From IMG/VR virus record IMGVR_UViG_3300025280_000023, positions 32,001 through 96,000 of that record: a stretch of 64,000 bases of DNA; one strand, 5' to 3'. This stretch comes from a virus. The notes under the pieces are model-generated. The model worked only from the letters and a program-made list of their open reading frames with translations. It was not told the DNA's origin and did not search any database. The position numbers were made by a program, and so were the translations under genes. Shown piece by piece: positions 31,991 to 50,259 of this stretch (its first letter is position 1; the number at the start of each line of letters is the position of its first letter).

Positions 31991-32022
31991 TATCTTTATC
32001 CTGTCATATAGGAGGAAACAAG

Positions 32023-32451: not shown

Positions 32452-32453
32452 AA

Positions 32454-33161: not shown

Positions 33162-33174
33162 TTTTACGGATTGT

Positions 33175-33540: not shown

Positions 33541-33610
33541 AATATCCTCTTATGTGAAAAATCATCACGTATCTACATGATTCAAACTAATTATTACAAG
33601 GGGTACAATT

Positions 33611-34546
33611 ATGTCTAATTATAAACTTTCAGAAAAGGGTATGGGTGGGCGGACTTTTCAAAAGAAAGAAGATGATTTTCTTGCTTGGCTAAATAAGGCT
33701 TCTGATTGGACAAAGGAGCACAAACCAAGGTTCAAACCAAAGCTGCCCTCTGGATCCCCCTCATTCAAAGGCCCATTTGCCTCGCTACAATTCTCGTTTA
33801 GCCGAGACGACTATCAGTATCCGGAGTCCCTGGGAATATCCGACTTCGTTATGCAAGATGAACTTGAACCAAATTTCTGGGTAAACAACGCCCTTAAACC
33901 ACCGATTCTTCAGCGCCTGATGGTTATTACTGCCGATTTTGTCAACAGCCTGGGGCTAGACAATGTGCATATAGATGATATTATTATAACCGGCTCGATA
34001 GCAAACTATAACTGGTCTGAGTATTCCGATATTGATGTGCACATTTTATTAGACTTCGAGGATGTTGACGACAATACTGAACTTGTTAAGAAATTCTTTG
34101 ATGCAAAGCGGATGTTATGGAATAAACACCATGAAATTATGGTAAAAGGCCATGAAGTCGAAATGTACCTTCAGGATACGAAGGAAACACATGTTTCTTC
34201 CGGGGTCTATTCGCTTTTAAATGGCACGTGGGTTAAATTCCCAAAAAAAGAAGAGCCAGCGATTGATATGAAAGCAGTAGAAGAGAAAACTCTTTCGCTA
34301 ATGAAGCTAATCGACGAAGTTGGTATGTTATTTTCGAATGGGCAACACAAATCTGCCCTCGATCTTTCCAGTAAAATAAAAAATAAAGTAAAAAGGATGA
34401 GAAAAACTGGGTTGGAGAGTGTCGGCGTATACTCTTCTGAAAACTTAGCGTTTAAGGCCTTAAGAAAAAATGATTATTTGGCAAAACTCCATGAACTGTA
34501 CACTAATTCATATGATGAACTAATGTCCATGAATGGGGATGGGTAG
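33611..34546 (+). CDS. Pol-beta superfamily nucleotidyltransferase
   Basis: ITGSIANYNWSEYSDIDVH (GS...DxD), VEMY. Confidence 0.8.
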   Translation: MSNYKLSEKGMGGRTFQKKEDDFLAWLNKASDWTKEHKPRFKPKLPSGSPSFKGPFASLQFSFSRDDYQYPESLGISDFVMQDELEPNFWVNNALKPPILQRLMVITADFVNSLGLDNVHIDDIIITGSIANYNWSEYSDIDVHILLDFEDVDDNTELVKKFFDAKRMLWNKHHEIMVKGHEVEMYLQDTKETHVSSGVYSLLNGTWVKFPKKEEPAIDMKAVEEKTLSLMKLIDEVGMLFSNGQHKSALDLSSKIKNKVKRMRKTGLESVGVYSSENLAFKALRKNDYLAKLHELYTNSYDELMSMNGDG

Positions 34547-34726
34547 ATGTCACGAGCGCCCTTTGAGAAACCTAGCAAGGAACAAGTTTTAGAGTGGTAT
34601 AAAAAGGCGTGTCTTAAAGAATTAAATATTTTTGATGATCTAAATTTAATAATTCTTACATTAACAAAAATGGTATTGAGATCATGGGACATAATTGAAA
34701 AAAATGAAGATATCGGTAACAAATAA
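34547..34726 (+). CDS. Small protein (59 aa, MSRAPFEKPSKEQ...), not in ORF track
   Basis: Starts immediately after the previous stop and overlaps the next start. Confidence 0.6.
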   Translation: MSRAPFEKPSKEQVLEWYKKACLKELNIFDDLNLIILTLTKMVLRSWDIIEKNEDIGNK

Positions 34727-36908
34727 AAAAAGGAAAAAACATACGGTACTCACGGAGGTCACCGAAAAAGAGATCGAGCAGATCTCGGATTTTGTAACGG
34801 ACGTTGACCCGGAAAAGCTAGCATTTGGTAATTTGTTTGGTGATAAAATGCGTGTACTTTTAAAGTCGGATATCTCTGACAACAACAGTGTTAATACTTT
34901 ATTTAAAATCTTTAAAAAGAATGGCTATTTCGTTGATTTTATTGGAGGAAAAGCGGAGAAAACCATTAGGACCCAGCGAGGCCTCGCGAAGAGGTCGATG
35001 AAGATTGGAAAAATCTTAAATCGTGCGTCTGAGTTAATTGGGTCGTTAAATGATATAGATCCCGGGGGTACTTCCGGAGAAAGGTATCGCCTGCATGACA
35101 AACTAAAGGAACTTTTCCCAAAAATAAGTGGAGATGATTCAAGGGAAATCTTAGGGCTTAAGGATTTTTGGGAAAGCGACTCGGAAAAATACAGGAAGGA
35201 ACCAGACACACTATCTTCCAACAAAAACTTTGTCATTATTTCGAGGCATCCAATTGACATTGTAAGAATGGCTGATTTTGATGAACTTGAAACATGCCAT
35301 TCTCCGCCTTCAAGGGCCGATCATTCGTTTTTCAAATGCGCTCTTGCAGAGGCGCGAGGGATGGGCGCGGTCGCTTATCTCATGGGTGCGGAGGAGCTTT
35401 TTGAACTTACCGGCGCCTCCGATAGTCTCGAAGAGCTTCAATCAAGCCTACAGGATTATGACAATGATGAAATCTTTCGCGATGAAAGCAGGGGCGTTAA
35501 GGGTATTGAACCAAAAGCAAGAGTAAGAATACGTAGGTTTGATAGATTTGATGAAGATGAAAACCTCTCCTTTTCGCTCGCCGTCCCAGAGGTGAAAGTA
35601 TATCCGTATACCCATGGCATTCTTGGAGACAAGGTTGCTGATTGGACACGAAGTAAACAAAAAGACCTTATTGATTGGCTTAAAAACACCAAACATGGCC
35701 ACGACACCCTGTATTTGAGAGGGGGTAGCTATTCCGACAGCCCGGCAGGGGAACTCGTTGAAGACTTTGTGGGAGCCGATTTACATAAATTTAAAATTAA
35801 GCATTACGAAAAAGACGAGGATGATTTAATATCGCCACATAATCTAAGTGAAGAAAGAGTCAGAGAGGTCGTAGATGAAGTCAACGGCCGCCTAAGAAGG
35901 ATTCGTATAAACGCAACTATTTCTCTTCGCGCTAATCATCCGGATATTAACGTAAAAGCAAAAGCCTATTTTGATTTTGAAGCTTCTGAATTTATAAAAC
36001 CACTTTCAAAAGATGTGCCTCAAGACTGGCCCGGCTTCGGCGAGTTGGCGGAATTATTAGAAGAGTACAGCCTGGGGGCCGATTCCTATGCGGAAGATAT
36101 TGATAGATACGCTTTTGGAGGACAAGGCGGCGGTCAAAACCGCTTGTACGACACCAGGGAGTTTTCAGGCGCCAAAATACTGGACTATACCCCGGTTGGA
36201 GGTGGCACAGAAAAGATCTCTATTGCTCTACCACTAGTAGTGGATGGAGAGTATTTGAATACCATGGAAGAATTTGAAGAGCTTGCCGTTAGTTTTTATG
36301 ATAAAGATCTAGAAATAGAAAAGCACACCCCAATTATACGAGAATGGCTGCTTCGAGAAGGCTTCCTAAGAGGCTCCGCAATGAAAAACCTGGAATCCGA
36401 ACTTGGAAGTATTGGTATGTTTGATCTTGATTGGGATCATGCAATAGAAGAGGGTGAGTTTGGAGAGCCGCCGTATAGGATATCATTTGAGAATATAACC
36501 CATATTAAGACGCCAAACCCTGAGTATGCTGGTAAATTTATTGAGGTCGTTACTGACGAGGGCTACCAGTACGACGCCACAATAAACATTAAAAAGGCTA
36601 TCGTTAATAAGGTCTATGACAATAATAATGTTTTGCCGGGAGAGCGGTATTATCCCAATTTCGACTTGAGCGCAATGGCATATAAAACAGACCCAGCGGC
36701 GGTAGAGGTCAAGATCACCATGAGTGTACCTGACGACGCGCCCGAGTCGCTTATTAAATATATTCTAGAAATGGCTCAAACTTGGGATGATGAGGACATA
36801 GAGAATCTTATTCTTACCTCCGTTCAAGAAAGCATGTATCAGTATGTAGAGGCCAGACAAGTTAGAGAAAACTTTAATCGGTTTGACAAATTTTTTAAAA
36901 GGAGGTAA
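34704..36908 (+). CDS. Large hypothetical protein, paralog of 45198..48125
   Basis: Shared SRHPxDxxRMxD...CHS...FxCAxAExRGxGAV block; MKISVT...LTE N-tag. Confidence 0.8.
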   Translation: MKISVTNKKRKKHTVLTEVTEKEIEQISDFVTDVDPEKLAFGNLFGDKMRVLLKSDISDNNSVNTLFKIFKKNGYFVDFIGGKAEKTIRTQRGLAKRSMKIGKILNRASELIGSLNDIDPGGTSGERYRLHDKLKELFPKISGDDSREILGLKDFWESDSEKYRKEPDTLSSNKNFVIISRHPIDIVRMADFDELETCHSPPSRADHSFFKCALAEARGMGAVAYLMGAEELFELTGASDSLEELQSSLQDYDNDEIFRDESRGVKGIEPKARVRIRRFDRFDEDENLSFSLAVPEVKVYPYTHGILGDKVADWTRSKQKDLIDWLKNTKHGHDTLYLRGGSYSDSPAGELVEDFVGADLHKFKIKHYEKDEDDLISPHNLSEERVREVVDEVNGRLRRIRINATISLRANHPDINVKAKAYFDFEASEFIKPLSKDVPQDWPGFGELAELLEEYSLGADSYAEDIDRYAFGGQGGGQNRLYDTREFSGAKILDYTPVGGGTEKISIALPLVVDGEYLNTMEEFEELAVSFYDKDLEIEKHTPIIREWLLREGFLRGSAMKNLESELGSIGMFDLDWDHAIEEGEFGEPPYRISFENITHIKTPNPEYAGKFIEVVTDEGYQYDATINIKKAIVNKVYDNNNVLPGERYYPNFDLSAMAYKTDPAAVEVKITMSVPDDAPESLIKYILEMAQTWDDEDIENLILTSVQESMYQYVEARQVRENFNRFDKFFKRR

Positions 36909-36915
36909 TATGTAA

Positions 36916-37170
36916 GTGTTTAAGAATTGGATGACAGGAATTTTGATTTCGACTATTCTCTTGATGTTCACCGTCACTGAGGTGACCGGGAAAGTCCCGA
37001 GAGCTAAATTTTATGACTTTAATGAGCAACTAATAGATGGCGAAATAAAAAAGCCTACAACGCTCTATACAGATGCGAGAGATAAAGTTAAATTTGAAAG
37101 ATTGCTAAAATTGAAGAAGAGTTTTTTGAATAAATTATACAAAACAGCCAAAGAACGAGTTTTTAAGTGA
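36916..37170 (+). CDS. Secreted CglF/GltF-like gliding-motility protein
   Basis: Signal peptide; FYDFNEQLIDGEIKKP...ARDKVKFERLLKLKKSF matches the recalled DF...I.G...P....R...F..LI..R..F pattern of myxobacterial CglF. Confidence 0.65.
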   Translation: MFKNWMTGILISTILLMFTVTEVTGKVPRAKFYDFNEQLIDGEIKKPTTLYTDARDKVKFERLLKLKKSFLNKLYKTAKERVFK

Positions 37171-37556
37171 AGATCAGGCTTATTAAAGAAAAAAAGCCAA
37201 GGGATTCCAAGCTTGTCTCTAAGGGGATCCTACACGATGGGAACAATGTTTTGATCCTTAGCGGAATCGTTGGTCTTGGATGGGATCTTCCCGGTGGCCA
37301 TATACATATCGGAGAAGACCCTGTAGCGGGTCTTAAGCGCGAAGTCTATGAGGAGACCGGGCTTAACGTCGAAAATCCCGTAGAGACGCATTTTGAGGGG
37401 CATACGCACTATTATAAAGCAAGCTTGCCACCCGGAAAGATACATTTAAGCCACGAACATACCGAATATAAGCTTGTTGATTATAAAAACGTTGATAATA
37501 TAGACATGACGGATAAATTTAAGAGTGCTATAAAGAAATCAATGGAATATAGTTAA
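37167..37556 (+). CDS. NUDIX hydrolase
   Basis: Nudix box GGHIHIGEDPVAGLKREVYEETGL; LSHEH. Confidence 0.92.
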   Translation: MKIRLIKEKKPRDSKLVSKGILHDGNNVLILSGIVGLGWDLPGGHIHIGEDPVAGLKREVYEETGLNVENPVETHFEGHTHYYKASLPPGKIHLSHEHTEYKLVDYKNVDNIDMTDKFKSAIKKSMEYS

Positions 37557-37559
37557 AAA

Positions 37560-37763
37560 GTGCCTAAAGACGACAAAGACAAAACCATAAAAGAGCTTGT
37601 AGAGAAGAATAGACAATTACAAGACGAAGTAGACTCTCTTTGGATGATGTTAGATGAGATGACAAAATCCGATATTGAGAACTGGTCGAGTATCTTAGAC
37701 GAGCTTAATGCAAACGTAGCTGAGCGTATATTGATGGTTACAAAGAAAAAGGCTGACGCATGA
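37560..37763 (+). CDS. Small coiled-coil protein
   Basis: Operon overlap. Confidence 0.65.
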   Translation: MPKDDKDKTIKELVEKNRQLQDEVDSLWMMLDEMTKSDIENWSSILDELNANVAERILMVTKKKADA

Positions 37764-38314
37764 AAGACATCAACCTTTACTGTGATATGGATGGCGTTTT
37801 AGTCGATTTACACGGCGGGATTATAAAAGCCTCGTGGCTTCAAGCGAAGTCCATGAAGGATCGTATAAAAAAAATAATTGAGTCTGAATGGAAATTTGGA
37901 ATTAATCATCCTGTTCCGGAGCTTCAAGAAGCAAATTTATTTATAGACAACCTTGTTAGCAACAATGCTGCCTTTTGGGCAAATCTAGAGCCCACAAAGG
38001 AAAAGGACGAGCTTTGGGATAATATATCTAAGTTTAATCCTTCTATATTATCACATCCATGGGATAAGAGTAGCGCCGTAGGTAAAAACATTTGGCTTCG
38101 CAGGCATCTTAATCCGGGACCCAGGGAGATATTTTTACCTTTAGATGGTAAGAAACATCTTTGGGCATCTAGCGACGATGGCAAAATCAATATCCTCATT
38201 GATGATTTTGAAAAATACGTGATCCCTTGGAACAATGCAGGCGGCATTTGTATACATCACACTACTGGTGATGCCGAGTCTAGCATAAGCGCTTTAAATA
38301 ATATTCTTTCTTAA
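37760..38314 (+). CDS. HAD-family 5'(3')-deoxyribonucleotidase
   Basis: DMDGVLVD, FWANL, GKNIW, LIDD, WNNAGG. Confidence 0.88.
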   Translation: MKDINLYCDMDGVLVDLHGGIIKASWLQAKSMKDRIKKIIESEWKFGINHPVPELQEANLFIDNLVSNNAAFWANLEPTKEKDELWDNISKFNPSILSHPWDKSSAVGKNIWLRRHLNPGPREIFLPLDGKKHLWASSDDGKINILIDDFEKYVIPWNNAGGICIHHTTGDAESSISALNNILS

Positions 38315-38319
38315 AGCAG

Positions 38320-38349
38320 AAGGCCCCCTCCGTTTCCAGAGGGGGCCTT
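38320..38349. terminator. Hairpin between convergent genes (terminator)
   Basis: AAGGCCCCCTC/GAGGGGGCCTT 11-bp stem; T-rich flank on the minus strand. Confidence 0.75.
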
Positions 38350-38385
38350 AAAGACTCTAAAAAGAGTCACCCTAAAAGGGCTAGG

Positions 38386-40674
38386 CTATTCGCCAGACAT
38401 CTTGTCTAGTTTAGCCGTTAGTTTCTCAATCTGGCTCTGTTGTTCCTTAACAGCCTCTACGAGAACGGAAGCAACGCGGCTGTAGTCTACACCCTTAGCC
38501 TCGCCGTTTTCGTCCATCTGGCAGATTTCAGGAAGAACGTCTCCTACCTCTTGAGCAATGAAACCAAGGTCAGACGCTTTGTCTTCTTTCCAGTCGAAAG
38601 ATACGCCACGAATCTTCTTGATCTTCTCAATCGGGTCGGAAACCGTCTTGATGTTTTCCTTGAGGTTAACATCAGAATGGCAAACCCAAGCTTTACAAAT
38701 AGCTCTGTGGGAGGTCCCAAGAGCAAATTTGATGTCGCTGGCCATGCTAGACATATCAAGACTATCGAATTTCATAGTCGAAAATTCCATAGTCGTGAAC
38801 TTACCAGCTTTGGCCGTAGTTTGACCAATTGCAACACCGTCTATAGTACCGTCACCAGCGGAGTCCGTAAGGGCCACGTTGGTGGTAGCAGTCAAGTCAG
38901 TGAACGTACCAGCAGCAGCGGTACTGGCACCAATAACAACTTGGTCCATAGCGCCCGCGCCGTTTACATAAAGTCCATCCCACTTTCTCGTAGAACTACC
39001 AAGCCTTTGGGTGCCATCAGCAGCCGCAATAAGGTCGGAGTTAATCAAGGCGTTAACAACCAGAGTGTCATCAGTGCTGGCACCGATAGTTACATCGTCG
39101 TTAGCAGTTAGATTAGTGAACGTACCAGCAGCAGGAGCGCTGCCACCGATTGTAGCACCGTCCATAGTGCCACCGTTAATATCAGCAGTGGTAGCAACCA
39201 AACTTGCAGCAGTGGTTACACCGGCTGGACTGATCGCAAGAGCGTCAGTGCCGTCACTCTGTTCAACGAGGAACATGTTTGCAGACTGTCCACTGGCTCC
39301 CTTAACAGCAAGCGTTACTTCAGCAGCAGTATCACCTTCGATTGTAACACCCGCATTAACGGCGAGCGAATCGTTGGCAGTCAAAGCCGTGAATGTACCA
39401 GCAGCAGCGGTAGTACCGCCGACCACACTGCTATCGACAGAACCACCGCTAATGGTTAGATCCTGATCAATATACGCATTAGCAATGGAAGAACCCTGCC
39501 ATACGCCAGTGCCAATCGTTCCAACTGAAGTCAGACTTGAAGCCACAACTGCACTACCAAGACCAGTAGCGCTAAGCGTATCGACGCCGTTGATCTGATA
39601 GGTCTTGCCGGTGAGAATATCAATACCAGCAGAAGACTTCCAGTCACCGTCACTTTGAAGGGTCCAAGAGGCATCGCTATCGGTACCCTTAACAGTAAGA
39701 CCAGCGCCAGCGGCAGTAGCCAAGTTGCTCGCACCATTAGTCGAACCCGAAAGAGCGTTCAAGGTGATGTTCTTATCTTCAACTGCGTATTCGGCAACAT
39801 TGAAGTAAGATAGCTCACCGTGAACGGCAAGGTCGCCTTCGATAGTGGCATTACCAGCAACAGCTAGAGTCGATTGGCAAGCAACAGCACCACTGAAGCT
39901 TCTAGGGCCCGGAATAACAGACTTAAGCTGAAGCTTATTGCTTGAGATCTCAAGGCCGTTAGCGGAAGAAGCTAAGTCAATGGCAAGCACGTTGCTGCTT
40001 AGAGCAAGACCGTCACCATCAACACCGCTCTTAAGCTGAATCTCGTCACCGGAGATTTGAAAAGACGTGCTGTTTACGTTAACGGAAAGCGCGCTACCAC
40101 CACCACCAGCGAGACCATCGCCGGCAACAGAAGTGTTTAGGTGGCTCTCGGTAATACCGGAGGCCTTAACACGCATAGCATCACTGTCAGTTTCAATCGT
40201 TGAATCGTCAACGTTAACCTTGAGCGCATGGCTGGCTAGAGACAGGCCATCACCGGCTGAACCAGCCGCAAACTGAAGCTCGTCAGAGTCGTACTGAAAT
40301 GACGTGCTGTTTGCATTAGCAGCCATAACGCCATTGGCAGCCGAAAGACCAGTGCCAGCCATTGCAGTAGCAAGGTCAGCAAAGCTTTCTTTCTTTAACT
40401 TGTCGCTTTCGCTAGCATCGACAAATGCAAAGCTATCGTTTGCAACGTCAACCACCGCTCCACCTAGCCACGCTGAAGAGTCGTCAATGTAGCTTGCAGA
40501 GTGCATAATTTCGGACTTTTGATCGTCCTCAGACATATTTGTTCCTACAAGGTAGAGTCTTGCCTCAGATCCTGCGGCCTCAGCCCAGATCTTAACACTA
40601 CCAGAGGCATTCGTCGGCTGATCGCTGCTCGTTAAGACAGCAAAGTCGGCCGATAATCCATAAGAAGTTCCCAT
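38386..40674 (-). CDS. Fibre/tail-associated protein with C-terminal peptidase S74 intramolecular chaperone
   Basis: Ala/Gly/Ser/Thr-rich repeats (AGDGL, GGTIDG..IG..TAAAGTFT); SDVNLKENI...IRGVSFDW...GFIAQEV...LVEAVKE. Confidence 0.85.
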   Translation of the reverse strand: MGTSYGLSADFAVLTSSDQPTNASGSVKIWAEAAGSEARLYLVGTNMSEDDQKSEIMHSASYIDDSSAWLGGAVVDVANDSFAFVDASESDKLKKESFADLATAMAGTGLSAANGVMAANANSTSFQYDSDELQFAAGSAGDGLSLASHALKVNVDDSTIETDSDAMRVKASGITESHLNTSVAGDGLAGGGGSALSVNVNSTSFQISGDEIQLKSGVDGDGLALSSNVLAIDLASSANGLEISSNKLQLKSVIPGPRSFSGAVACQSTLAVAGNATIEGDLAVHGELSYFNVAEYAVEDKNITLNALSGSTNGASNLATAAGAGLTVKGTDSDASWTLQSDGDWKSSAGIDILTGKTYQINGVDTLSATGLGSAVVASSLTSVGTIGTGVWQGSSIANAYIDQDLTISGGSVDSSVVGGTTAAAGTFTALTANDSLAVNAGVTIEGDTAAEVTLAVKGASGQSANMFLVEQSDGTDALAISPAGVTTAASLVATTADINGGTMDGATIGGSAPAAGTFTNLTANDDVTIGASTDDTLVVNALINSDLIAAADGTQRLGSSTRKWDGLYVNGAGAMDQVVIGASTAAAGTFTDLTATTNVALTDSAGDGTIDGVAIGQTTAKAGKFTTMEFSTMKFDSLDMSSMASDIKFALGTSHRAICKAWVCHSDVNLKENIKTVSDPIEKIKKIRGVSFDWKEDKASDLGFIAQEVGDVLPEICQMDENGEAKGVDYSRVASVLVEAVKEQQSQIEKLTAKLDKMSGE

Positions 40675-40769
40675 TTTTTATTGTTCCTTATTTTTAAAAA
40701 ATGTTTAGCGGAGCCCATTCTCCGCGTCTTCTAAATAGGGGACGGCTCTGCAGTTGGCCTACTTAAATT

Positions 40770-41699
40770 TCATTTTTTTAAAGGAAAACTTCTAGCTTTT
40801 TTTGTGGTTCTCTTTATGTGTTTGATATTTCTATTTAATTCTTCAATTTGCCTTTGTTGAGAAACTGCAACTTTTTTTTGTTCTTCAATCATGACCTGTT
40901 GTTCTTTGACGCATTCAACAAGAACACCGATTAAAGAATGATAATTTACGCTGCTGATCTTGCCATCGTCTTCTTTGTCTACGATCTCAGGGAAGGGGAC
41001 GGCCACATCTTCTGCGATTAAGCCGATGTCAGGTTCTCCGGTTTCTTTCCAAGAGAAGGAGACCCCTTGAAGATTCTTTACCTTGTCCAAGGCTCCTTCA
41101 ACTGGCTTAATGTCCCTCTTAAACCGGGCAGAGCTATAGGCTTTAAACTTAGACGCCTTGATAGACTGGCCCTTGGCGAGCGTTAAAGATTCAGTAACGT
41201 CGTCACCCTGCACACCAATGCCTATCTTCCCGTTTTTAGAAACATGTATCCTGGAAATGCTATTGGTCACAATATCTAGTGAATAATTTGTTGTATTGCC
41301 AAGTGTTCGATTTGATGTGACCCAATCACCGCCGTTACTGTATTCGCCGCTAATATAGGTCCATGATAGATTGTCATCACCGTCATTGGTTAGGCCATAT
41401 CCGACCCCGCTGGCAGCATATGGCCAAGTATATGCGCAATTATTGAACTGGGTCTTTCCCGTCACGGAAAGGGAACCGGTGAATTCGTGCAGGTCATCGG
41501 AGCTATCCCCAGATTTTGTAGAGCCGTTGATGTGCAAATCACTTGTAGTAACACTGATCATCTCGTTAGATTGGACCCTGCCGGAGACATACAAAGAGCC
41601 GGTGAACATATGAATGTCGGTGGGGCGACGACCGAACTCTGAGTTACCCCTAACGGTTACCGATTCTAAATCTCTGCTGCTAGCTCTAAAGTTGCCCAT
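40770..41699 (-). CDS. Fibre-like protein with S74 chaperone domain
   Basis: Repeated DxHxFTGSL; SSARFKRDI, LQGVSFSW, GLIAEDV, LVECVKE. Confidence 0.85.
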   Translation of the reverse strand: MGNFRASSRDLESVTVRGNSEFGRRPTDIHMFTGSLYVSGRVQSNEMISVTTSDLHINGSTKSGDSSDDLHEFTGSLSVTGKTQFNNCAYTWPYAASGVGYGLTNDGDDNLSWTYISGEYSNGGDWVTSNRTLGNTTNYSLDIVTNSISRIHVSKNGKIGIGVQGDDVTESLTLAKGQSIKASKFKAYSSARFKRDIKPVEGALDKVKNLQGVSFSWKETGEPDIGLIAEDVAVPFPEIVDKEDDGKISSVNYHSLIGVLVECVKEQQVMIEEQKKVAVSQQRQIEELNRNIKHIKRTTKKARSFPLKK

Positions 41700-41807
41700 G
41701 ATTTACCGCCTAGTAATATTAAGTAGAGGTTTTTGTATGAAAATATGCAATTATATGATATATATTATACGGTTAATTACGAATAAATTACGCAATAAGA
41801 TAGTTTC

Positions 41808-41969
41808 ATGAAAATCATTGATAAGTTCCTTGCTTTGGCCGGCTGGAGATGCCTTGAGTTTGTTGTTATAAAAAACAATACTCGTAGATGTTCCCTAAAA
41901 AGAGGACACAAAGGACAACATGAAGCTAAGTTTAAAAAATCTACTTGGAGATGGATCACCAAAGAATAA
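41808..41969 (+). CDS. Small Cys/His protein (53 aa), not in ORF track
   Basis: RC...RCSLKRGHKGQH putative metal-binding motif. Confidence 0.55.
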   Translation: MKIIDKFLALAGWRCLEFVVIKNNTRRCSLKRGHKGQHEAKFKKSTWRWITKE

Positions 41970-41974
41970 ATTTG

Positions 41975-42003
41975 TTGACAACTACCAAGCTATAATATAG
42001 AAT
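41975..42003 (+). promoter_or_regulatory. Sigma70-type promoter of the large ncRNA
   Basis: TTGACA (41975-80), 17-nt spacer, TAGAAT (41998-42003). Confidence 0.75.
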
Positions 42004-42009
42004 ACCCTT

Positions 42010-42623
42010 GTTCTTTTAAAAAATGTTTAGAATTCCCCTTTTCGTCGGGGATTAAAATCAGCTTGCACAATCCGGGGCGGCTGGGTCTTCTTAATTGGAG
42101 GCATAGACGAGCGCCTAAGGAAGTAGATGCGTTGTTTCGTATTTCCCCTAGCGGGGCCTTTAAACAAGGCGGTGGATAGGAAAGTAGTGTTTCTGAAGCC
42201 ACTTGTTAGCTTGACGACTAGAGTCGTGGTACTACCCGCGAAGTGCTGCCGTCAAGACAAACGGATTTGGACCGTTTATCGTTTGACCGGGTGTAACCAA
42301 GAAAGGTTACGGGAAGTTTTGCGTAAGCAAGCAAAGCGTCACTGTGTATAACAGTAGTGCCAATGGTGAAAAGCGAAAGCTGATCACGTCACCCGCAAGG
42401 GCACGTTTGGATCCATCCCGTATGGTCAAAAACGTGAAGTTAGGTACGGGGATATAGCTATCCTACCAAGCCAAGCTTAGAATGTTATACACAATATAGG
42501 TGTGCTGTTGCATCACACAACAACAGGGGCAAAGGTGGTGAAGGATATTACCCTTCCGTGTACAGACGCCACATCGGCGGTCACCACTATAGAGACGCTA
42601 ACTGTGCTGGCGTCTCTTTTTTT
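42010..42623 (+). ncRNA. Large (~610 nt) structured non-coding RNA, family unassigned
   Basis: No credible ORF; bounded by promoter and terminator; many helices, GNRA tetraloops, an 11-bp long-range helix and two candidate pseudoknots. Confidence 0.8.
42591..42623 (+). terminator. Intrinsic terminator
   Basis: AGAGACGCTA/TGGCGTCTCT stem followed by a T-run. Confidence 0.85.
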
Positions 42624-42655
42624 ATGTCTGAACAATATAAAAAACTAATTATAAT

Positions 42656-42805
42656 ATGGGTAACACCAAGAAAACTTTGGAAAAAATGGTCCAAGAGGTC
42701 CTTTCTGAGATGCTTGATAGTCATTTGAATTCGTCACTGAACGAGACAATACGAAAAAAAGGAAAGTGCCGGTGTTTGTATTCTAAGAAGAAGGGAAAAA
42801 AATGA
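42656..42805 (+). CDS. Small basic protein (49 aa, MGNTKKTLEKMVQEVLSE...), not in ORF track
   Basis: CTAATTAT 3 nt upstream; ATGA overlap with the next gene. Confidence 0.65.
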   Translation: MGNTKKTLEKMVQEVLSEMLDSHLNSSLNETIRKKGKCRCLYSKKKGKK

Positions 42806-43311
42806 AAAAGTTTATAATATCACTTTTAACTATATTGGCATTGTGTATTCCAATAGGGAATTCTAGCGCATCTGTTAGTATCGGCAAGAAGCCGCTAATC
42901 AATCACCATGTGCATGTAATAAAGGGACACTTCTTTACTGTATTTGAAGCAGTGTCAAAAGAAAACAAAGAGCTTATAATAAAGTCTATCTTTGTGCTTG
43001 AGCATCTCCATAAGGATAAGAAGCACCATGACCTACTTAAAAGACAAGATGAGAGAGAAGTCCAAATAATATTGGTGGCGGTTCTTCATATTAGAGGCGT
43101 ATTAAATGGAAAATACCCCGGTATGTATCCGGAAAACGCCCTTGAACTCTGGGAACACCTAGGAAAAAATGTAATTATTAAGAAGGTGAATAAGAACTGG
43201 ACGATGCAGTTAAAGATCCCCAAAGATATGAAGAGAAAGAAAAAAGAACAACACAAAGAGAATGCCACGGAAGGTGACAATCTTAATGACTATTGGCGAA
43301 AAGAACATTGA
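42802..43311 (+). CDS. Hypothetical secreted protein
   Basis: MKK plus hydrophobic signal peptide ending SSA. Confidence 0.65.
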   Translation: MKKFIISLLTILALCIPIGNSSASVSIGKKPLINHHVHVIKGHFFTVFEAVSKENKELIIKSIFVLEHLHKDKKHHDLLKRQDEREVQIILVAVLHIRGVLNGKYPGMYPENALELWEHLGKNVIIKKVNKNWTMQLKIPKDMKRKKKEQHKENATEGDNLNDYWRKEH

Positions 43312-44141
43312 AATTAATTTTAGAAAGCTGGCGTCGATATTTGGCGGAAGGCCACAAGCCCCCAATGATTAAGTGGCGTGCTGAAGGCGGACAGGTAAGA
43401 CCTTATGCACTATCGTTTAACAGCACAAAAGCAATTGAAGATGACCAGATCAGAGAAGTAAGGCGACTAGCTCAGCAAGGCGAGGTTGAAATGCCGCCTG
43501 GCCCACTAACCTACCCGGAAGCTGACCAAATAATCCGCAAATACTATGTTGATAAAGGTTATGACTCTATTGTTTATCGAAATAGACATAGAGAAACCAA
43601 GTCGATACCATCTAGTCAAATTACAGAATATGTTGACTTGAATACTGGAAAGCATTATGCCAATAAGGACTACGCTGAGTTTTATAACGCTACGAACAGA
43701 CAAAAAACAGGGCAGGGGCAGGCGGAAGGCGAAAGGGTGGAATATGGTCCATCATTGGCGCAAGAGTTAGATCCATCCGATCCGGCAGTTGTTGCAGCGA
43801 GCGACCCAAAGGGAAAGTATGATTGGGCTGAGCGCATCGAAGATCTAATAGGCGACCATCCGGTGAGCCAGGCTTTCCAGGCATCCAGAAAAGCAGGGGA
43901 GTTCACAGGCGATGTTCTCAAGTCAATAGAAAGAGGAGAGCCCGCAGTCAGGCTACCTAGAGAAGAAGCTCCAACTGGCCCCGAAGATATCCCTTGGTGG
44001 TTAAAAAGTGTTGACGAGCCGCCAGAGGAACCAAAAGAAAGAATTCCCAATTGGATGAAACCGGGTCCTGTACGAGATCCCGAAGAAACCAAAGGCGATC
44101 AAGAAAAGAAAAAAGGAATAGAGTTCCCAAAAGATGAATAA
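43308..44141 (+). CDS. Hypothetical protein with N-terminal tag MKLILESWRRYLAE
   Basis: TTG start overlapping the upstream TGA; tag motif. Confidence 0.75.
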   Translation: MKLILESWRRYLAEGHKPPMIKWRAEGGQVRPYALSFNSTKAIEDDQIREVRRLAQQGEVEMPPGPLTYPEADQIIRKYYVDKGYDSIVYRNRHRETKSIPSSQITEYVDLNTGKHYANKDYAEFYNATNRQKTGQGQAEGERVEYGPSLAQELDPSDPAVVAASDPKGKYDWAERIEDLIGDHPVSQAFQASRKAGEFTGDVLKSIERGEPAVRLPREEAPTGPEDIPWWLKSVDEPPEEPKERIPNWMKPGPVRDPEETKGDQEKKKGIEFPKDE

Positions 44142-44159
44142 TATCGAACTATTTACTAT

Positions 44160-44600
44160 ATGAAAAAATTACTTAGAGAATGGAAAGAATATACTTCGAA
44201 GCTAAACGAGCAGGAGGGGAATATGGAACTGGGTGAGCTTCAAGACGAAGTGGCACAAAGAGAACTTGAAGATCAAGAATTCACCCAGTCGCTAACCCAG
44301 TCAGATCAGCAGCTTGCTGGCCTTAGATCCGATATAGGCCAAGGCATGACACAGTTGGCAGGAGTGTCAGATCTCCCGGAAACTGAAGCTATTCCCACCG
44401 CCACAACGGAGCCCACCACTGGAACAACTCCTACGAGCACTCTTGGCACGCCAAATACGCCGCCAGCCCCCGCAAGTCAGAGCCCCCTCCTAGCGAGCCT
44501 TAAAAAGGCTTTCGGGCTTGCTAGAAAACCTGGCGTTAAAGCACAAGATATATTTAAAGCATTTGGAAGTATGGCCCCTAAACGAAAAGACGGCGGCTGA
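44160..44600 (+). CDS. Hypothetical protein with N-terminal tag MKKLLREWKEY
   Basis: CTATTTAC 3 nt upstream; Thr/Pro-rich linker. Confidence 0.75.
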   Translation: MKKLLREWKEYTSKLNEQEGNMELGELQDEVAQRELEDQEFTQSLTQSDQQLAGLRSDIGQGMTQLAGVSDLPETEAIPTATTEPTTGTTPTSTLGTPNTPPAPASQSPLLASLKKAFGLARKPGVKAQDIFKAFGSMAPKRKDGG

Positions 44601-44769
44601 ATATAGTTATTTCGGGTAGTTACCTGAGAAAACAATTTGACACTTGATAAAAATCATACTACTATTTAGTAGCGTATTAACACTTGTAAAAGCCGGCGCG
44701 GGCTTCAGTGGGCGATAGACCGCAATCCCGGCTTTTCTAGTGACTTTATTAAGCAAAGGCAAATAGCGA

Positions 44770-44949
44770 ATGAAGGTTGTTGTACCGAATAAGACCGCAA
44801 ACAAGATAGACGATCTCTTAAAACAGTTGCACTTATTAAAAGTTGCAGTTACACAAGAGAAACAAGATAAGCTAGAAAAAAGAATTCTAGACATGCGCAG
44901 GGACCTGTTGGTTATCCGAGAAGAAGTTGTCGACGAGTCAAGTAATTAA
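44770..44949 (+). CDS. Small coiled-coil protein (59 aa, MKVVVPNKTANK...)
   Basis: Plus-strand ORF matching the local gene orientation. Confidence 0.55.
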   Translation: MKVVVPNKTANKIDDLLKQLHLLKVAVTQEKQDKLEKRILDMRRDLLVIREEVVDESSN

Positions 44950-44974
44950 CAAGGTGTAATCTATATATTGTAAT

Positions 44975-45127
44975 ATGGATACCAATTATTGCCAAGACTG
45001 CCACTGCGAAAAAATAATGACGTTCTCTGTCCAGAAGAACGAAGCTCCTCTTGATATGGCAATTGAAGGTCAAGAACCGGAGTACGAAGAAGAGATCGAG
45101 CTTTATAAGACTTATGGCGGGGATTAA
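44975..45127 (+). CDS. Small protein (50 aa, MDTNYCQDCHC...YKTYGGD)
   Basis: CTATATAT motif variant upstream; CxxC. Confidence 0.55.
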   Translation: MDTNYCQDCHCEKIMTFSVQKNEAPLDMAIEGQEPEYEEEIELYKTYGGD

Positions 45128-45197
45128 GCCTCTATGCAATGGCCTGTAAGTATTAAATAAAGCTGAACAATCCAGTTTAAAGGGCCTATTTATTGTG

Positions 45198-48125
45198 ATG
45201 AAACCAATATTAGAAAATTGGAATAGATTTGTCCATAGGCAATCTAAGTTGGTGCCTCTCCAAGATAAGCGGAAAAGGCTCTTAAACGAAATCAGCTATA
45301 AGAATGCAGAAGCTATCAACGATTGGTTTGGTGGCGATTATAGCAAACTTGCGCTCAGGAGACTGTTTGATGATAAGCTACGGTATTCTTTTCCTCTTCA
45401 AACCCAAGACGAGAGGTACCTGCTTAGAGCGATCAAATATCTCATAGACGACAATTGGATGCCACCTGAAAACGAAGACGACGCTTCTTGGGCGAAAAGG
45501 CGCTTCTCTACTAAAGTTGTCAAGCAAAAGCTTCGAAAGCTCGATACCGGAGAAGAGTATGAGGTCGATGTTGAAGTTCCTGATTTAAAATTAGAGCGTT
45601 CCGTTGAGCGTGAGATCCCGAAAGGCCCCAGGGCAGGCGAGATTGTTAAGAGCAAGGAGGTTGCCAGCTTTGCAAAGGCGATGGCAAAGGCGGGCGTTCC
45701 AAAGCCATTGATGCAATGGTGGGAGCGAGCCCAAGGTCACTATACTAAAAACAGTGGCTGGAAGGCCATTGAAGACGCATTTATTAGCGGCGGCGGCAAT
45801 GCTGGAATTGAATATTCTGTTGTTGTATCTCGTCATCCCATGGATGTTTTGAGAATGAGTGACATTGGAAATATTAAATCGTGTCATAGCGAAGGCGCGA
45901 GTTATTTCCAATGTGCCGTTGCCGAGTCAAGAGGGCATGGCGCTGTCGTATATCTTATTCCCACGGATGAGCTAAAGGAGTTCTTGCGTGTTAAAGGCGA
46001 GGATGAGGAGATGTATGGTAGCGATGTAGACATGGCAAGCAGCGAGGAGACGGAGTATAAGAAGCTGTCTGATTTTGATGATCAAGAGATCTTTAGAGAC
46101 TCCGCTAGAGGAGTTGATGGTATCGTTGCCAAAGCAAGAGTTCGTCTAAGGCGTCTTGAGCTTGAAGGTGGCTACATGGCTAAAGAGTTTGCTATTCCGG
46201 AGCTTGCGACATATGGATCGCACCCCGCTGGCTTTGTTCAGGCCGTTTCAAAGGATACATGGGAAAGGCAAAAGGATCTCTTTGTAGCCAAAAGTGGACG
46301 CCTTCATTTGCCGAGCGATGACGAACTAAAGATAACAGGCGGAACCTACAGAGATACAACTCCCGCTAGAATGTTAAACAACTTCTTTTCAGCGTCTGGA
46401 GAAAAGGTAGACAAATATCACGGCTTTATTGAAACAGAAGGTGGTGAAGAAGAACTAGAGAACCTATGGGAGATGTATGAAACAGAAATAGAAGAGCATA
46501 ATGCTAGAGCTAGCAATGAATTAGAACACGCCTGGTTCCATGGGGAAGTAGATGGGCATGATGAGCCCTACGTAACCGTTTCTGCCGGTATGTCTATTAC
46601 TGTTCCCTTGTCCTGGGAGGGCGCTATCGATGTTTCGGGAGGCGCACAAGCCGCCACCAAGGGTGATGTCCACGGGCAAGAGAAGTGGGTTCCTAACGAC
46701 CAGTATAACTTAATACCCAACACACATGGGGATTACAAGGCGTCAGGAGCATTTGAGTCGCTTATTAAAGACATATCTGACTACCCGGAATCAATGGAGT
46801 GGAGTATTGGCTCTGGAACAGAGACGCCATGGGAAATAGAATTCCAATTGTATTATAATTGTGACGATTGCTACAATCCGGACAACGCCGGTTATTTTTT
46901 AGATTATATCCGCGATGATATTGACAAAAAACATGACGTAATCAAAGAAAAGATTCGCAAGGTCCTCATAGAAAATGGCTACATGCCTGCCGGCTACTTC
47001 GATGAATTGGAAAAAGAAGAAGAGAACAGAGAAGAGGGCACTATTAGATTTGAAAACTTTGCCTTCATGGGTGATGAAAACAAGGATGGCACAATTGAGT
47101 TTATTTTAAGATATGCCGAACATGACCAGACTGAGAGTTTTTTACCCACCGGATTAAGAATCCCATTGGTCCTGGCCAGGTCTGCTCCCGGCGAGCCCCC
47201 GATATACGATTCTCTAGCCCTAATGAGGGCTGGCCTTGGAACTAAAAAAGTTCAATTAAGAAGCGCTTATAGCGCGATTGCGCTTTCTCCACTTGCAGAA
47301 TCCGAAGTAAACAAAAGATTGGCATCTCTAGAAAAGGCGGCCAATGAACATATTAGCAGGCAATTTCACCTGGATCTCGGTGACGGCTGGGAGCCCAAAG
47401 TATTCTCCGGCGTTGAAAATCTTAATCGTGCCGTGTTCTCAGTTTATTTTATGAACCAAAGCTGGCGTGGTTCGCCCACACCTAGTGAAGAAAGAGAAAT
47501 CGGTTTTAATTTAAGAATTCAAATCCGATCTACCGACACTAAAGAAGAGATTAATATTGCTTTAGAATATATTAGCTTTATTGATAGACACGTAGAAGAA
47601 ATTAAAAGAACAGTAGCCGATGTCTTTAGCACTATTATGGAGTCCAAAGCTAAAGAAGTAGAAAAAGAAGAAAGGGAGTTCTTTGACGGCACCACAGCGA
47701 AAGGACTTATCATGCAAATATACCGCTCCAACGCCACCCTAATGAATACTGACGAAGGTAAAGGCCGGGTCAAGATCGCTAAGTGGGTCGCTGAAAACTG
47801 GAGTACGATGAGCGATGATCAGAAGCGCATTTCAATTAATCAATATTTGGTTCCGATTGTGAACCGTAGTTACGGTGATAATTACGGGATCAACTTGTCT
47901 AGTCGAGCAAGTGATGAGCCGACCACCCCCTCGTTTTTTAGTGGATATCTTCCAGTGGGCCATGGACCCTGGGCTGGAACTGACTATAAGACCACCGAAA
48001 TACCCTCCTGGGACGAAGATGAGGACATTGAGCAGGGTAGGGGCCTAGGCAAGGTGTTTGAATGCGTTCTAGGCCCCAAAACGGGCCTTATACGGTTAAG
48101 ATTTAAGAGGGCTTTATTAGGATGA
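45198..48125 (+). CDS. Large hypothetical protein with N-tag MKPILENWNRF, paralog of 34704..36908
   Basis: CTATTTAT upstream; shared conserved block. Confidence 0.85.
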   Translation: MKPILENWNRFVHRQSKLVPLQDKRKRLLNEISYKNAEAINDWFGGDYSKLALRRLFDDKLRYSFPLQTQDERYLLRAIKYLIDDNWMPPENEDDASWAKRRFSTKVVKQKLRKLDTGEEYEVDVEVPDLKLERSVEREIPKGPRAGEIVKSKEVASFAKAMAKAGVPKPLMQWWERAQGHYTKNSGWKAIEDAFISGGGNAGIEYSVVVSRHPMDVLRMSDIGNIKSCHSEGASYFQCAVAESRGHGAVVYLIPTDELKEFLRVKGEDEEMYGSDVDMASSEETEYKKLSDFDDQEIFRDSARGVDGIVAKARVRLRRLELEGGYMAKEFAIPELATYGSHPAGFVQAVSKDTWERQKDLFVAKSGRLHLPSDDELKITGGTYRDTTPARMLNNFFSASGEKVDKYHGFIETEGGEEELENLWEMYETEIEEHNARASNELEHAWFHGEVDGHDEPYVTVSAGMSITVPLSWEGAIDVSGGAQAATKGDVHGQEKWVPNDQYNLIPNTHGDYKASGAFESLIKDISDYPESMEWSIGSGTETPWEIEFQLYYNCDDCYNPDNAGYFLDYIRDDIDKKHDVIKEKIRKVLIENGYMPAGYFDELEKEEENREEGTIRFENFAFMGDENKDGTIEFILRYAEHDQTESFLPTGLRIPLVLARSAPGEPPIYDSLALMRAGLGTKKVQLRSAYSAIALSPLAESEVNKRLASLEKAANEHISRQFHLDLGDGWEPKVFSGVENLNRAVFSVYFMNQSWRGSPTPSEEREIGFNLRIQIRSTDTKEEINIALEYISFIDRHVEEIKRTVADVFSTIMESKAKEVEKEEREFFDGTTAKGLIMQIYRSNATLMNTDEGKGRVKIAKWVAENWSTMSDDQKRISINQYLVPIVNRSYGDNYGINLSSRASDEPTTPSFFSGYLPVGHGPWAGTDYKTTEIPSWDEDEDIEQGRGLGKVFECVLGPKTGLIRLRFKRALLG

Positions 48126-50041
48126 AAATAAAAATCACAAACAAAAACCAAATGCTGACTGAAGCCAAAGGCGATCCAAAGTTGCCAATTATCGGGTATA
48201 GAAGAGATGCCAAAGGTAATATAATTCCAGTTCGTGCCTCCTGGGAAGGCCTTAAGCAGCGCAGAAACCCTCTCTTCAAAGGAACTCCCCTTGGCAAAAA
48301 GGGAATGATTTCAAGAAGTGAGGCGGGTGGGGTGCTGCGTGGGGTGGACCCAAACATCACATGGCTAGAATATATGAATAAGGATGTGTCCAGAGGCTAC
48401 CCGCAGTCTGCCGTCTATGATTTAAAGCTTCCATGGAAGAGATCAGAGCAGCTTCGCGCTGCCGGCGATATGGCCAGAGATGTATTTTTCGCAGCTAAAC
48501 AAAATGTCCTCGCAAGAATGAAAATGATGGCAGACCAATATGGTGCCGAGCGAGCACTTGAGATGATTGGTGTAAAAAAAGCGGAGGTGCGCAACCTCCG
48601 GCCCGTCGAGGCTCCAGGCCTGAAAGCAGTAAACGTCAGGTTACACCGGACTCCTCAGGGCCCCGAACGCGCCAAAGCAATTGCCGCAGTGGGATACGAT
48701 GCACCGGTTATGAAGAGATTTTACGCGCCGCTGGTTATAGAAAACCATGCTATACCTAGAGAAAACTGGGCTCTCTTGATCAGTGACGAGTTTGAAAATC
48801 TCTTTGGGCAACTATACGTTACCGGAAAATATGAACAGGTAACGTATGAACCAAAACAGAAGTACGAAACCGTGACTACGAGAACTCCCGGTAGGGACGG
48901 AAGGATGGTCGTTGGAACAAAAAATGTAAGTCGAGATGTAAACGAGCTTGGTAAGTACGAGACCAGAACCGTAGATGCATTTGAGCTTTTGGAACCGAGG
49001 ACGGGACGGGAAATAGACCAATATGAAAAGACTGGCCAGTGGCCAAAAGCAAGGCCAGGGCAAAAAAAGTCCCCGCGACAAAGGCTTAGCAGATTCGGGC
49101 TCCATCGAGCATTATGGGATTTGGCACCGGTATACGGGGTGCGCGCTGACTCACTTGTAAACGCTCGCACAAAAGCAGTACAGCTAGCTCAGGTAGCCGC
49201 AGCTAAAACTAATACTAGAAAGTTCGGTTTGGTTAATCGCCTTGAACACGATTCTAGTCTTGCACAAGAGGCTGCCGAACACTTAGAATTCTTAAAAAAT
49301 ACTGCTCCACCGGGCATGACCATGGAAGAGTGGGACAAGGAGTTCAGGGGGGTCCTGGCGGAGCTTGACGACGAATTAGCGCGTCCCGACTTGTCTCCAA
49401 AACAGAAGGCTCAAGTTGAGCTAGACCTCCAGGATATGAAAGCTCGCTTGCGAGGCCTACCGCATAAGCCAGATGTAGCGGCCACATATCCTGCCTCTGG
49501 ATCTCCCCGAGTAAAGATGGGCTCTATTAAGCCAGCGATAAAAGTAGGTGCGGTAGGGGCAGTGGTTGCGACAATTTTATCCATACCTGACGTTGCGTAT
49601 GCCTACGAATCAAATGGGTCACGGGCGGCCTTCGATAAAGCAATTGAGATTCTACCAAGTGTTGTAGACCCAACTGGTTTTTATGATGTGGTCGTTGGAC
49701 TACATACAATACTTTCCTCACCGGATCCCAAGAAAACATCAGAGATATACGGCAAAGCAATTGGCCAAGGCCTTGGCGCATACCCGGAAAAGTTCCCAGG
49801 AGGGACAGATATAACCGGAGAACAACTGCCGCAGTTGCAGCTTCCGCTAGGTGAAAAACCGGAGACTCGTGAGGATCTTAAAACGCAGATAGATCTTGGA
49901 AAGACCTATGAGCCTCATGGCAATATACCGGAGCCTTCCAAAAGAACCTCGTCTCCTATACCAAAGGCCCACCGGCCCCTATATCAACAAGACCCAAGAA
50001 CAAAGGAATGGATCGTAGATCCAGAGAGTTTAGAAAAATGA
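48122..50041 (+). CDS. Hypothetical protein with N-tag MKIKIT...LTE and a late hydrophobic segment
   Basis: AIKVGAVGAVVATILSIP hydrophobic helix followed by DPTG. Confidence 0.8.
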   Translation: MKIKITNKNQMLTEAKGDPKLPIIGYRRDAKGNIIPVRASWEGLKQRRNPLFKGTPLGKKGMISRSEAGGVLRGVDPNITWLEYMNKDVSRGYPQSAVYDLKLPWKRSEQLRAAGDMARDVFFAAKQNVLARMKMMADQYGAERALEMIGVKKAEVRNLRPVEAPGLKAVNVRLHRTPQGPERAKAIAAVGYDAPVMKRFYAPLVIENHAIPRENWALLISDEFENLFGQLYVTGKYEQVTYEPKQKYETVTTRTPGRDGRMVVGTKNVSRDVNELGKYETRTVDAFELLEPRTGREIDQYEKTGQWPKARPGQKKSPRQRLSRFGLHRALWDLAPVYGVRADSLVNARTKAVQLAQVAAAKTNTRKFGLVNRLEHDSSLAQEAAEHLEFLKNTAPPGMTMEEWDKEFRGVLAELDDELARPDLSPKQKAQVELDLQDMKARLRGLPHKPDVAATYPASGSPRVKMGSIKPAIKVGAVGAVVATILSIPDVAYAYESNGSRAAFDKAIEILPSVVDPTGFYDVVVGLHTILSSPDPKKTSEIYGKAIGQGLGAYPEKFPGGTDITGEQLPQLQLPLGEKPETREDLKTQIDLGKTYEPHGNIPEPSKRTSSPIPKAHRPLYQQDPRTKEWIVDPESLEK

Positions 50042-50259
50042 AGCATTTAAAAGAAAATAATGAAACGTACTTCAGTCATCTTAAATTCGCTTTAAGTATT
50101 GGAACAAGCCTGATGATAAGAGGAGCACTTCTTATTCTTCATGCCTTTCTGCCCATGGTAACGATTCCAAAAAAATGGAGTCTTGACGACACCCTGAGAA
50201 CAGTATATCGGTGGTCTGTTTATGCCAACAAAAGAAAGAAGGGGACCTTGAATGAATAG
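50038..50259 (+). CDS. DUF6356-like small membrane protein
   Basis: HLKENNETYFSHLKFA...ILHAFLP pattern. Confidence 0.65.
   Translation: MKHLKENNETYFSHLKFALSIGTSLMIRGALLILHAFLPMVTIPKKWSLDDTLRTVYRWSVYANKRKKGTLNE

Follow-up and report, generated by a model that had tools for sequence, protein, structure and literature searches.

We describe a structured non-coding RNA (ncRNA) encoded on the + strand at positions 42010-42623 of a stretch of DNA from an uncultured marine phage. The stretch, called the window below, is 64,000 nucleotides long and represents bases 32001-96000 of a 123,549-bp IMG/VR virus record, which is judged 68% complete. We judge it to be real, structured and stand-alone, and to belong to an uncatalogued family represented by this first described member and one metagenomic homologue; our data demonstrate that its fold is conserved on the + strand by compensatory substitutions. 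The account of the locus that we hold with good confidence is a self-contained gene for a highly structured ncRNA of ~610 nt, whose family is absent from Rfam and has two known members. A stand-alone structured RNA of this size had been proposed from the letters of the window without database searches (the original prediction), and it is borne out by 43 compensatory pairs and by a promoter and the same terminator in both copies. The locus combines what is generally expected of a stand-alone ncRNA gene: its own promoter and terminator, from which we infer transcription, no conserved open reading frame (ORF), and a conserved structure.

Compensatory changes between two copies

The homologue was reached through a protein of 976 aa encoded at 45195-48125 of the window (a paralogue lies at 34695-36908). 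It has 48 relatives in a large protein collection, P0002-P0004 among them at 48-49% identity. Nine of the 48 were aligned, the resulting profile was used to scan metagenome contigs, and the best 80 of the 464 loci with relatives were kept. With positions 41970-42630 as query, nhmmer matched one of these 80 loci, L023 (6762-7384, + strand), at E 2.3e-83 and 71% identity over 631 nt, the query being covered from 42009 to 42628, i.e. at full length. The original prediction had suggested nhmmer as a way to homologues; the one that it returned maintains the helices with compensatory changes. L023, a marine scaffold of 22 kb, encodes a homologue of the 976-aa protein with 47% identity to that of the window. 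The two phages have a common gene order, window 30508-37763 corresponding to L023 124-6680 and window 42656-50259 to L023 7413-15419 (31-81% amino acid identity), and the RNA occupies the same position in it, upstream of co-oriented genes in both. Its nucleotide identity (70.5%) falls in the upper part of the range of 12 flanking genes (49-78%).

In the 628-column alignment of the window with L023, the consensus fold computed by RNAalifold contains 171 pairs, of which 43 are changed on both sides with pairing kept, 19 are changed on one side and none is broken, at a consensus energy of -180.7 kcal/mol including a covariation term of -26.25. At least one compensatory pair is present in 18 of the 30 helices; six helices are invariant and uninformative, among them the terminator and the 42501-31 region. 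Because RNAalifold picks pairs that fit both sequences, three controls were run. In sixty alignments whose columns were shuffled within classes (identical, different, gapped), compensatory pairs numbered 13.4 +/- 2.8 and never more than 20, and the energy was -95.5 +/- 6.05 kcal/mol, with -112.65 as the best value. With the 3' partners displaced by 1-3 columns, the double changes fell to 3-6 and the paired cells to 41-46%, compared with 43 and 100% in the true register, and none of 500 partner shuffles reached the observed values. The reverse complement folded at -129.6 kcal/mol with 35 compensatory pairs and 18 G-U cells, against 49 such cells on the + strand. From this asymmetry in energy and G-U pairs we conclude that the + strand is the RNA, as first read, and that a hairpin acting at the DNA level is an unlikely explanation.

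The RNA codes for no protein. Its longest frames are of 74 and 70 aa, the 74-aa frame of the window meets a stop after 15 codons in L023, and every frame of both copies contains 5-16 stops. Substitutions between the copies are even over the codon phases (0.27, 0.33 and 0.28), without codon periodicity. A recoded gene was rejected, since reading TGA as W, TAG as Q or TAA as Q opened no frame across the region. The gap without a credible ORF described in the original prediction is real; it belongs to the longest ORF-free stretch of the window (41700-42801, 1102 nt, at a threshold of 80 aa).

A decayed protein gene, a DNA-level element such as an origin or packaging site, or chance structure would each dispense with an RNA gene altogether, and thermodynamics taken by itself leaves room for this. 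The minimum free energy of the single sequence is -202.4 kcal/mol, with z -3.7 on the + strand and z -4.26 on the minus strand (20 shuffles), so that the minus strand also folds well on its own. Across all 600-nt windows of the 123.5-kb genome, with energy regressed on G+C and skew, the residual of the RNA is -1.6 standard deviations (sd) on the + strand and -2.0 sd on the minus strand, unremarkable for this genome, and several coding windows fold better than the RNA locus after regression. The evidence beyond chance comes instead from the homologue and the compensatory changes. These lie far above the shuffles and go with a strong strand asymmetry in G-U pairs; codon periodicity is absent, and the sequence has no repeat elsewhere in the window save a 17-mer. 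The covariation and codon-phase results have largely refuted the idea that there is no RNA gene, and we give it next to no credence.

Further copies were sought by several routes. Nothing similar to either copy was found in GenBank phages by blastn with 11-base words, in IMG/VR with three exact patterns drawn from stretches in which the two copies do not differ, or in 185,579 species genomes by one 22-mer. An nhmmer profile and two covariance models, applied to 87 sources (1.04 Mb of related phage DNA), gave significant E values for the window and L023 only: the model of the 42343-42493 domain (R1) found these two alone, and the model of the 3' domain (R2) found them together with one extra match at chance level (E 7.7). 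Searches of IMG/VR or the species genomes with the neighbouring proteins of 169, 976 and 311 aa returned no relatives, close relatives being absent from IMG/VR; an alignment that included the 976-aa paralogue led to two distant IMG/VR records, both without the RNA; and a further search gave 14 loci, all of them distant matches to the chaperone domain of tail fibres, with no RNA among them.

Proposed transcription unit and action

The 16 strings quoted in the original prediction for helices, promoter and terminator were all found where it had placed them. The promoter matches the sigma-70 consensus at 11 of 12 positions, and the terminator is present as a hairpin followed by a U tail (Table 1). 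The 123.5-kb genome has nine sites of at least 11/12, where shuffles have 3.45. The sequence shared with L023 sets in at ~42008-42010, at the predicted transcription start, and the promoter DNA of the two phages cannot be aligned; L023 has a perfect 12/12 promoter of its own, TTGACA-16-TATAAT at 6696-6723, which lies ~32 nt farther upstream and comes with an additional small hairpin. The proposal of a host-type promoter thus agrees with a predicted near-consensus sigma-70 promoter in both copies. The terminator is identical in L023, loop included.

Since co-oriented genes come straight after the RNA in both phages, and both the terminator and the 32-nt spacer from it to the next ATG are conserved, the region might be a cis-regulatory leader of the operon that starts at 42656, its terminator serving as an attenuator regulated by a ligand, a protein or an antiterminator. 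Such a leader would also fit the fact that no other sigma-70-type site of at least 10/12 lies between the divergent tail-fibre genes and 42656, where the only candidate is a 9/12 site at 41737 (+). We consider it unlikely, however. The spacer carries CTAATTATA, a motif that stands before at least four other gene starts, so the downstream operon probably has its own promoter. An RNA of 610 nt with about 28 helices far exceeds known attenuators, and the terminator is strong (10 bp, U7). The sole alternative pairing seen by eye, between AGACGCC at 42564-70 and the 3' arm of the terminator, does not hold in L023, and the AGACGCC stretch instead covaries within helix 42567-70/42576-79.

The motif in the spacer has the general form CTAWTTATW, which occurs nine times in the window against 4.4 expected, a count reached by 4 of 100 shuffles, and lies immediately before the starts at 26934(-), 27027, 33611, 42656 and 45195. 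It is probably the phage's own promoter, middle or late. A phage-type promoter before the downstream operon would make the RNA a separate transcription unit, with the order host-type promoter, RNA, terminator and phage-type promoter for the operon. Sites of the motif directly ahead of gene starts were noted at 26939-47(-), 27004-12, 33587-95, 42645-53, 45186-94 and 59299-307, and some of the genes behind them are apparently leaderless, as with the site at 45186 before the GTG at 45195.

For a stand-alone RNA, we propose that host RNA polymerase would start at the near-consensus sigma-70 promoter, which suggests early and strong expression, and that transcription would stop at the strong intrinsic terminator, the downstream genes using their own phage-type promoter. 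The strong terminator and separate downstream promoter together point to a discrete product of ~610-640 nt and not a leader. Rather than pairing as an antisense RNA, this product may act in trans through its three-dimensional fold, as a scaffold for a protein or ribosomal partner or by self-assembly, with OLE, ROOL and GOLLD as models. The argument is that its helices number at least 25 and fall into domains that are each closed on their own, that two GNRA loops are conserved and many unpaired nucleotides invariant, and that in its 3' part two 50-column blocks of 90% and 68% identity lead into an identical terminator. Given that the RNA is real, we put such a trans-acting role at an even chance or slightly less.

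The size, the multi-domain architecture, the invariant unpaired nucleotides and the conserved GNRA loops could also suit a ribozyme, self-processing or acting on a host or phage substrate, and the accessible part of one OLE study makes the same argument from size, complexity and conservation (PMC11332333). Nevertheless, no Rfam ribozyme family matches, there is no flanking exon or insertion signature, and the sequence points to no reaction; we regard catalysis as distinctly unlikely.

Several points weigh against the account of a stand-alone, trans-acting RNA. The alignment consists of two sequences only, and the preference of RNAalifold for pairs that fit both was controlled by shuffles only. 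The folding energy of the single sequence is no outlier in the genome (-1.6 sd), is not strand-specific and is insufficient alone. The RNA family is rare. The promoter, the ends and the discrete product are predicted from the sequence. One metatranscriptome had no contigs on the stretch, which says nothing on expression either way, and the 16 runs listed include no RNA sample. In three DNA runs, the contigs on the stretch were all identical, without variants. Finally, the trans-acting scaffold is argued by analogy.

Architecture and gene neighbourhood

The consensus fold divides the RNA into domains, which are listed with the neighbouring features in Table 1.

Table 1. Positions of the RNA, its parts and other features of the window
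Feature	Positions	Strand	Remarks
Sigma-70-type promoter (predicted)	41975-42003	+	TTGACA-17-TAGAAT; 11/12, near-consensus; predicted start ~42010
Structured ncRNA gene, ~610 nt	42010-42623	+	Homologue, covariation, strand controls
5' domain	42010-42112	+	Closing helix 42010-18/42104-12 around hairpins 42034-51, 42058-84, 42085-102
Junction	42113-42124	+	Last 10 letters CCUAAGGAAG (42115-42124) identical in both copies; first two differ
Central hairpin array	42125-42330	+	42125-44, 42145-55, 42156-70, 42171-203, 42210-56, 42258-85, 42287-313, 42319-30
Candidate kissing loops	42184-89 x 42230-35	+	GUAGUG (GUAGUA in L023) with invariant UACUAC
Candidate pseudoknot	42308-14 x 42416-22	+	UACGGGA with loop UCCCGUA
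Long-range-helix domain	42343-42493	+	Closed by 11-bp helix 42343-53/42483-93; contains GAAA hairpin 42366-87, GNRA hairpin 42392-401, 42402-36, 42437-78
3' domain	42497-42590	+	Invariant hairpin/pseudoknot region 42501-31; multibranch 42534-88
Intrinsic terminator	42591-42623	+	10-bp stem, 7-nt loop (42591-42617), then U7
CTAATTATA	42645-42653	+	Probable phage-specific promoter of next gene (start 42656); boundary marker, outside RNA
PhoH gene	27027-28337		
Peptide deformylase gene	31536-31955		Conserved block upstream of RNA
Hsp20 gene	32023-32451		Conserved block upstream of RNA
Nucleotidyltransferase	33611-34546		Weak match
NUDIX gene	37167-37556		Conserved block upstream of RNA
Tail-fibre gene 1	38386-40674	minus	Endosialidase-chaperone domain
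Tail-fibre gene 2	40770-41699	minus	Endosialidase-chaperone domain

The 5' domain holds nine compensatory pairs over four helices (2, 2, 3 and 2) and an invariant loop, UUAAUU at 42091-96. The invariant, Shine-Dalgarno-like block CCUAAGGAAGUA (42115-42126), which begins in the junction, has no credible pairing partner; a predicted helix of 42116-22 with the terminator U tail, which never varies, is probably an artefact. Translation of a small ORF behind this box was considered and rejected: the AUG-to-GUG change is matched by a compensatory one in the pairing partner, and the two copies do not share the peptide.

Fourteen compensatory pairs lie in the central array, four of them as double changes in helix 42224-29/42236-41; the helices of 42287-313 are weak and vary on one side only. 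The pairing CTTGACG/CGTCAAG named in the original prediction keeps five pairs, two of them doubly changed. Its hairpin at 42319-30 holds as a stem, fully re-written and with two double changes, and its GNRA loop is lost in L023. Two further predicted stems did not survive the comparison: AAACGG/CCGTTT is replaced by a shifted helix, 42258-64/42279-85, and GTAACC/GGTTAC has only three pairs in L023. The candidate kissing loops of this array can form six pairs in both copies, with a G-U pair becoming A-U, and are a lead only, about one such match being expected by chance on our own estimate.

The long-range-helix domain is the richest in covariation, with 16 compensatory pairs. The 11-bp helix that closes it, a centrepiece of the original prediction, shows four double and three single changes with all pairs kept. 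Within it, the predicted CACGTTT/AAACGTG helix (42402-08/42430-36) has three double changes, the GAAA-capped stem (42366-74/42379-87) four, and the CCC-GNRA-GGG hairpin one. Both GNRA loops of the domain are conserved, the first as an invariant GAAA and the second as GCAA in one copy and GAAA in the other. The proposed pairing of CCCGTA with TACGGG (42445-50) is broken in L023. The candidate pseudoknot of Table 1 has seven pairs in both copies with two compensatory changes; stacks as good occur 0.73 times per shuffled alignment, and it is not significant on its own.

In the 3' domain, four compensatory pairs fall in 42534-41/42581-88 and 42567-70/42576-79, and the predicted GTGGTGA/TCACCAC helix is upheld by two double changes. 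An H-type pseudoknot had been proposed just upstream, and the comparison lends it no support. One of its stems, GTGTG/CACAC, loses its closing pair in L023, where the change of G42504 to A turns that pair into A-C, and the other, CTGTTG/CAACAG, is invariant in a stretch that barely varies. The 11-nt GNRA receptor motif consists of CCUAAG with UAUGG, and a candidate for it was rejected, its UAUGG half not being kept in L023. Co-mutating twin words in the RNA were at chance level, with two four-mers against 2.24 expected and none of at least 5 nt.

The RNA locus lies between the start of tail-fibre gene 2 (41699) and a + strand gene run from 42656, with a baseplate wedge gene further to the left of the tail-fibre genes. 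The deformylase, Hsp20, nucleotidyltransferase-like, NUDIX and PhoH genes form a host-takeover block, which gives the RNA a context and not a test. Compared with L023, the window carries an extra ~4.2 kb just upstream of the RNA promoter (window 37760-41970 vs L023 6680-6696), consisting of a 184-aa ORF, the two minus-strand tail-fibre genes and an A+T-rich spacer. The L023 copy of the RNA comes straight after a 67-aa gene, and tail-fibre genes are absent there. The insertion looks like a swapped host-range module.

The 5' end of the RNA (42014-42030) is identical over 17 nt to 40692-40708 (blastn E 0.017), which makes it the complement of the minus-strand leader at 18-34 nt before the tail-fibre start at 40674. 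Part of the RNA might on these grounds be antisense, for instance to a tail-fibre mRNA leader, making it a base-pairing regulator. We find this very improbable, since L023 lacks tail-fibre genes at the locus and conserves only 10 of the 17 bases, the repeat is A+T-rich, and antisense pairing leaves 43 compensatory pairs over 600 nt unexplained. Read on the minus strand, both copies of this direct repeat come after a G+C hairpin and before the start of a tail-fibre gene, the second copy being situated between the two genes of this kind, so that the repeat may serve that strand as a terminator or regulatory element. The template of a diversity-generating retroelement was also considered and rejected: 41700-42805 compared with the rest of the window (blastn, word size 7) gave only the 17-nt A+T-rich repeat and chance matches, and the L023 RNA has no tail-fibre genes beside it.

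Some further features of the neighbourhood deserve mention. Directly 3' of the RNA, 42656-42805 encodes a small basic protein of 49 aa that overlaps the next gene; its L023 counterpart (7413-7646, 77 aa) shares 26 of 48 residues with it, including IRKKGK..CLYSKKK, and it is a candidate RNA partner by position only. The three consecutive proteins that start at 43293, 44160 and 45195 have N-termini that look alike by eye, with a short motif L.E.W..Y/F that may be a leader or targeting peptide common to them. In many metagenomic relatives of the 976-aa protein (L045 2167-3913, L059, L065, L067, L068, L083 and others) the tblastn match crosses in-frame stops, in stretches without an ORF of at least 70 aa; these phages may use stop-codon recoding, or the assemblies may contain errors. 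A second ORF-free gap (519 nt) lies at 60205-60723 of the window, and the 600-nt window at 60401 folds on the + strand 3.5 sd better than expected, exceeding the 42010-42623 RNA; it may be another structured RNA.

Comparison with known RNA families

Both copies were compared by cmscan with all 4227 families of Rfam 15, using permissive filters at E <= 10. At the gathering score the 64-kb window has no match. At E <= 10, the window copy has five chance-level matches (miRNA, CRISPR repeat, RAGATH-33 at 16.7 vs 120.4 bits among them) and the L023 copy two, with no family common to both. HEARO and raiA have models in Rfam, and neither these nor the models of GOLLD, ROOL and OLE match either copy. 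GOLLD, ROOL and OLE figure as Rfam families in the available part of a recent preprint (bioRxiv 10.1101/2024.12.08.627333). Rfam likewise gave no match to tmRNA, RNase P RNA, 6S RNA, group I/II introns or self-cleaving ribozymes, and ARAGORN detected no tmRNA in the window. tRNAs are absent from both the 64-kb window and L023 (ARAGORN), and the five of the genome lie at least 27 kb from the RNA. As far as the Rfam models reach, the RNA is not GOLLD, ROOL, OLE, RNase P, tmRNA, an intron or a known ribozyme. The original prediction could assign it to no family, and cmscan fared no better with either copy even at E <= 10; between a divergent GOLLD or ROOL member and a new class, which had both been offered, the lack of an Rfam match favours the latter, and the former has no support. 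Full-text searches of the literature led to work on ROOL, GOLLD and OLE and to surveys of structured RNAs, with nothing recognisable as this RNA, although a text search cannot find a sequence. The claim of novelty draws mainly on the absence of an Rfam match and the empty blastn search of GenBank phages.

To our knowledge, natural RNAs of more than 500 nt with dense conserved structure are few, namely ribosomal RNAs, RNase P, group I/II introns, tmRNA, OLE, GOLLD and ROOL. Each of these has revealed unusual biochemistry. A bolder possibility, which we hold to be doubtful, is that the RNA described here founds a new class of large "ornate" phage RNAs. Host polymerase would make it early, and it would work through an elaborate architecture at the tertiary or quaternary level, whether by assembling from RNA alone, as the cages of ROOL and GOLLD do, or by acting as a new ribozyme. 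Natural RNAs of such size and complexity are very few, and this one, if the reading is true, would join them as a separate lineage; the invariant Shine-Dalgarno-like CCUAAGGAAGUA, together with the deformylase, Hsp20 and NUDIX neighbours, would be in keeping with an action on host RNA or at the ribosome of the host. The RNA is a clean test case: its ends are defined, its predicted promoter and terminator are strong, and aligning just two sequences already settles most of the helices. It also shows that large RNA families in uncultured marine phages escape current covariance-model libraries.

Among known systems, three lend themselves to comparison. GOLLD members are often longer than 800 nt and lie beside tRNAs, as a tendency, in the available part of the preprint (bioRxiv 10.1101/2024.12.08.627333). 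Our RNA differs from them in both respects, has no match to the GOLLD model, and is unrelated in sequence and predicted helices. The feature to set beside GOLLD is the distribution of identity between the two copies: 90% in the 50-column block from 42504 and 96% in the last block (mostly terminator) vs 50-78% in the blocks of 42008-42503, with 68% from 42554. OLE, according to the accessible part of its description, works within a ribonucleoprotein and resembles our RNA in its size of ~600 nt and in an intricate fold with invariant nucleotide stretches (PMC9723947). Unlike our RNA, it is bacterial, from Gram-positive extremophiles and anaerobes, and not from phages; its model matches neither copy, and genes for OLE-associated proteins were not seen here, no search having been aimed at them.

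ROOL is represented in the same preprint by a 659-nt example from phages and prophages, often near tRNA islands, again as a tendency and no strict rule (bioRxiv 10.1101/2024.12.08.627333). The RNA of the window departs from it in having no Rfam match at E <= 10 and no tRNA within 27 kb. By cryo-EM (cryo-electron microscopy), ROOL and GOLLD form RNA-only cages, and the preprint asks whether other large natural RNAs do likewise (bioRxiv 10.1101/2024.12.08.627333). As far as the available part of that source goes, the likeness of our RNA to ROOL is that both are phage-encoded, measure ~600 nt, have no known protein partner, and combine many helices with pseudoknots, which here are candidates.

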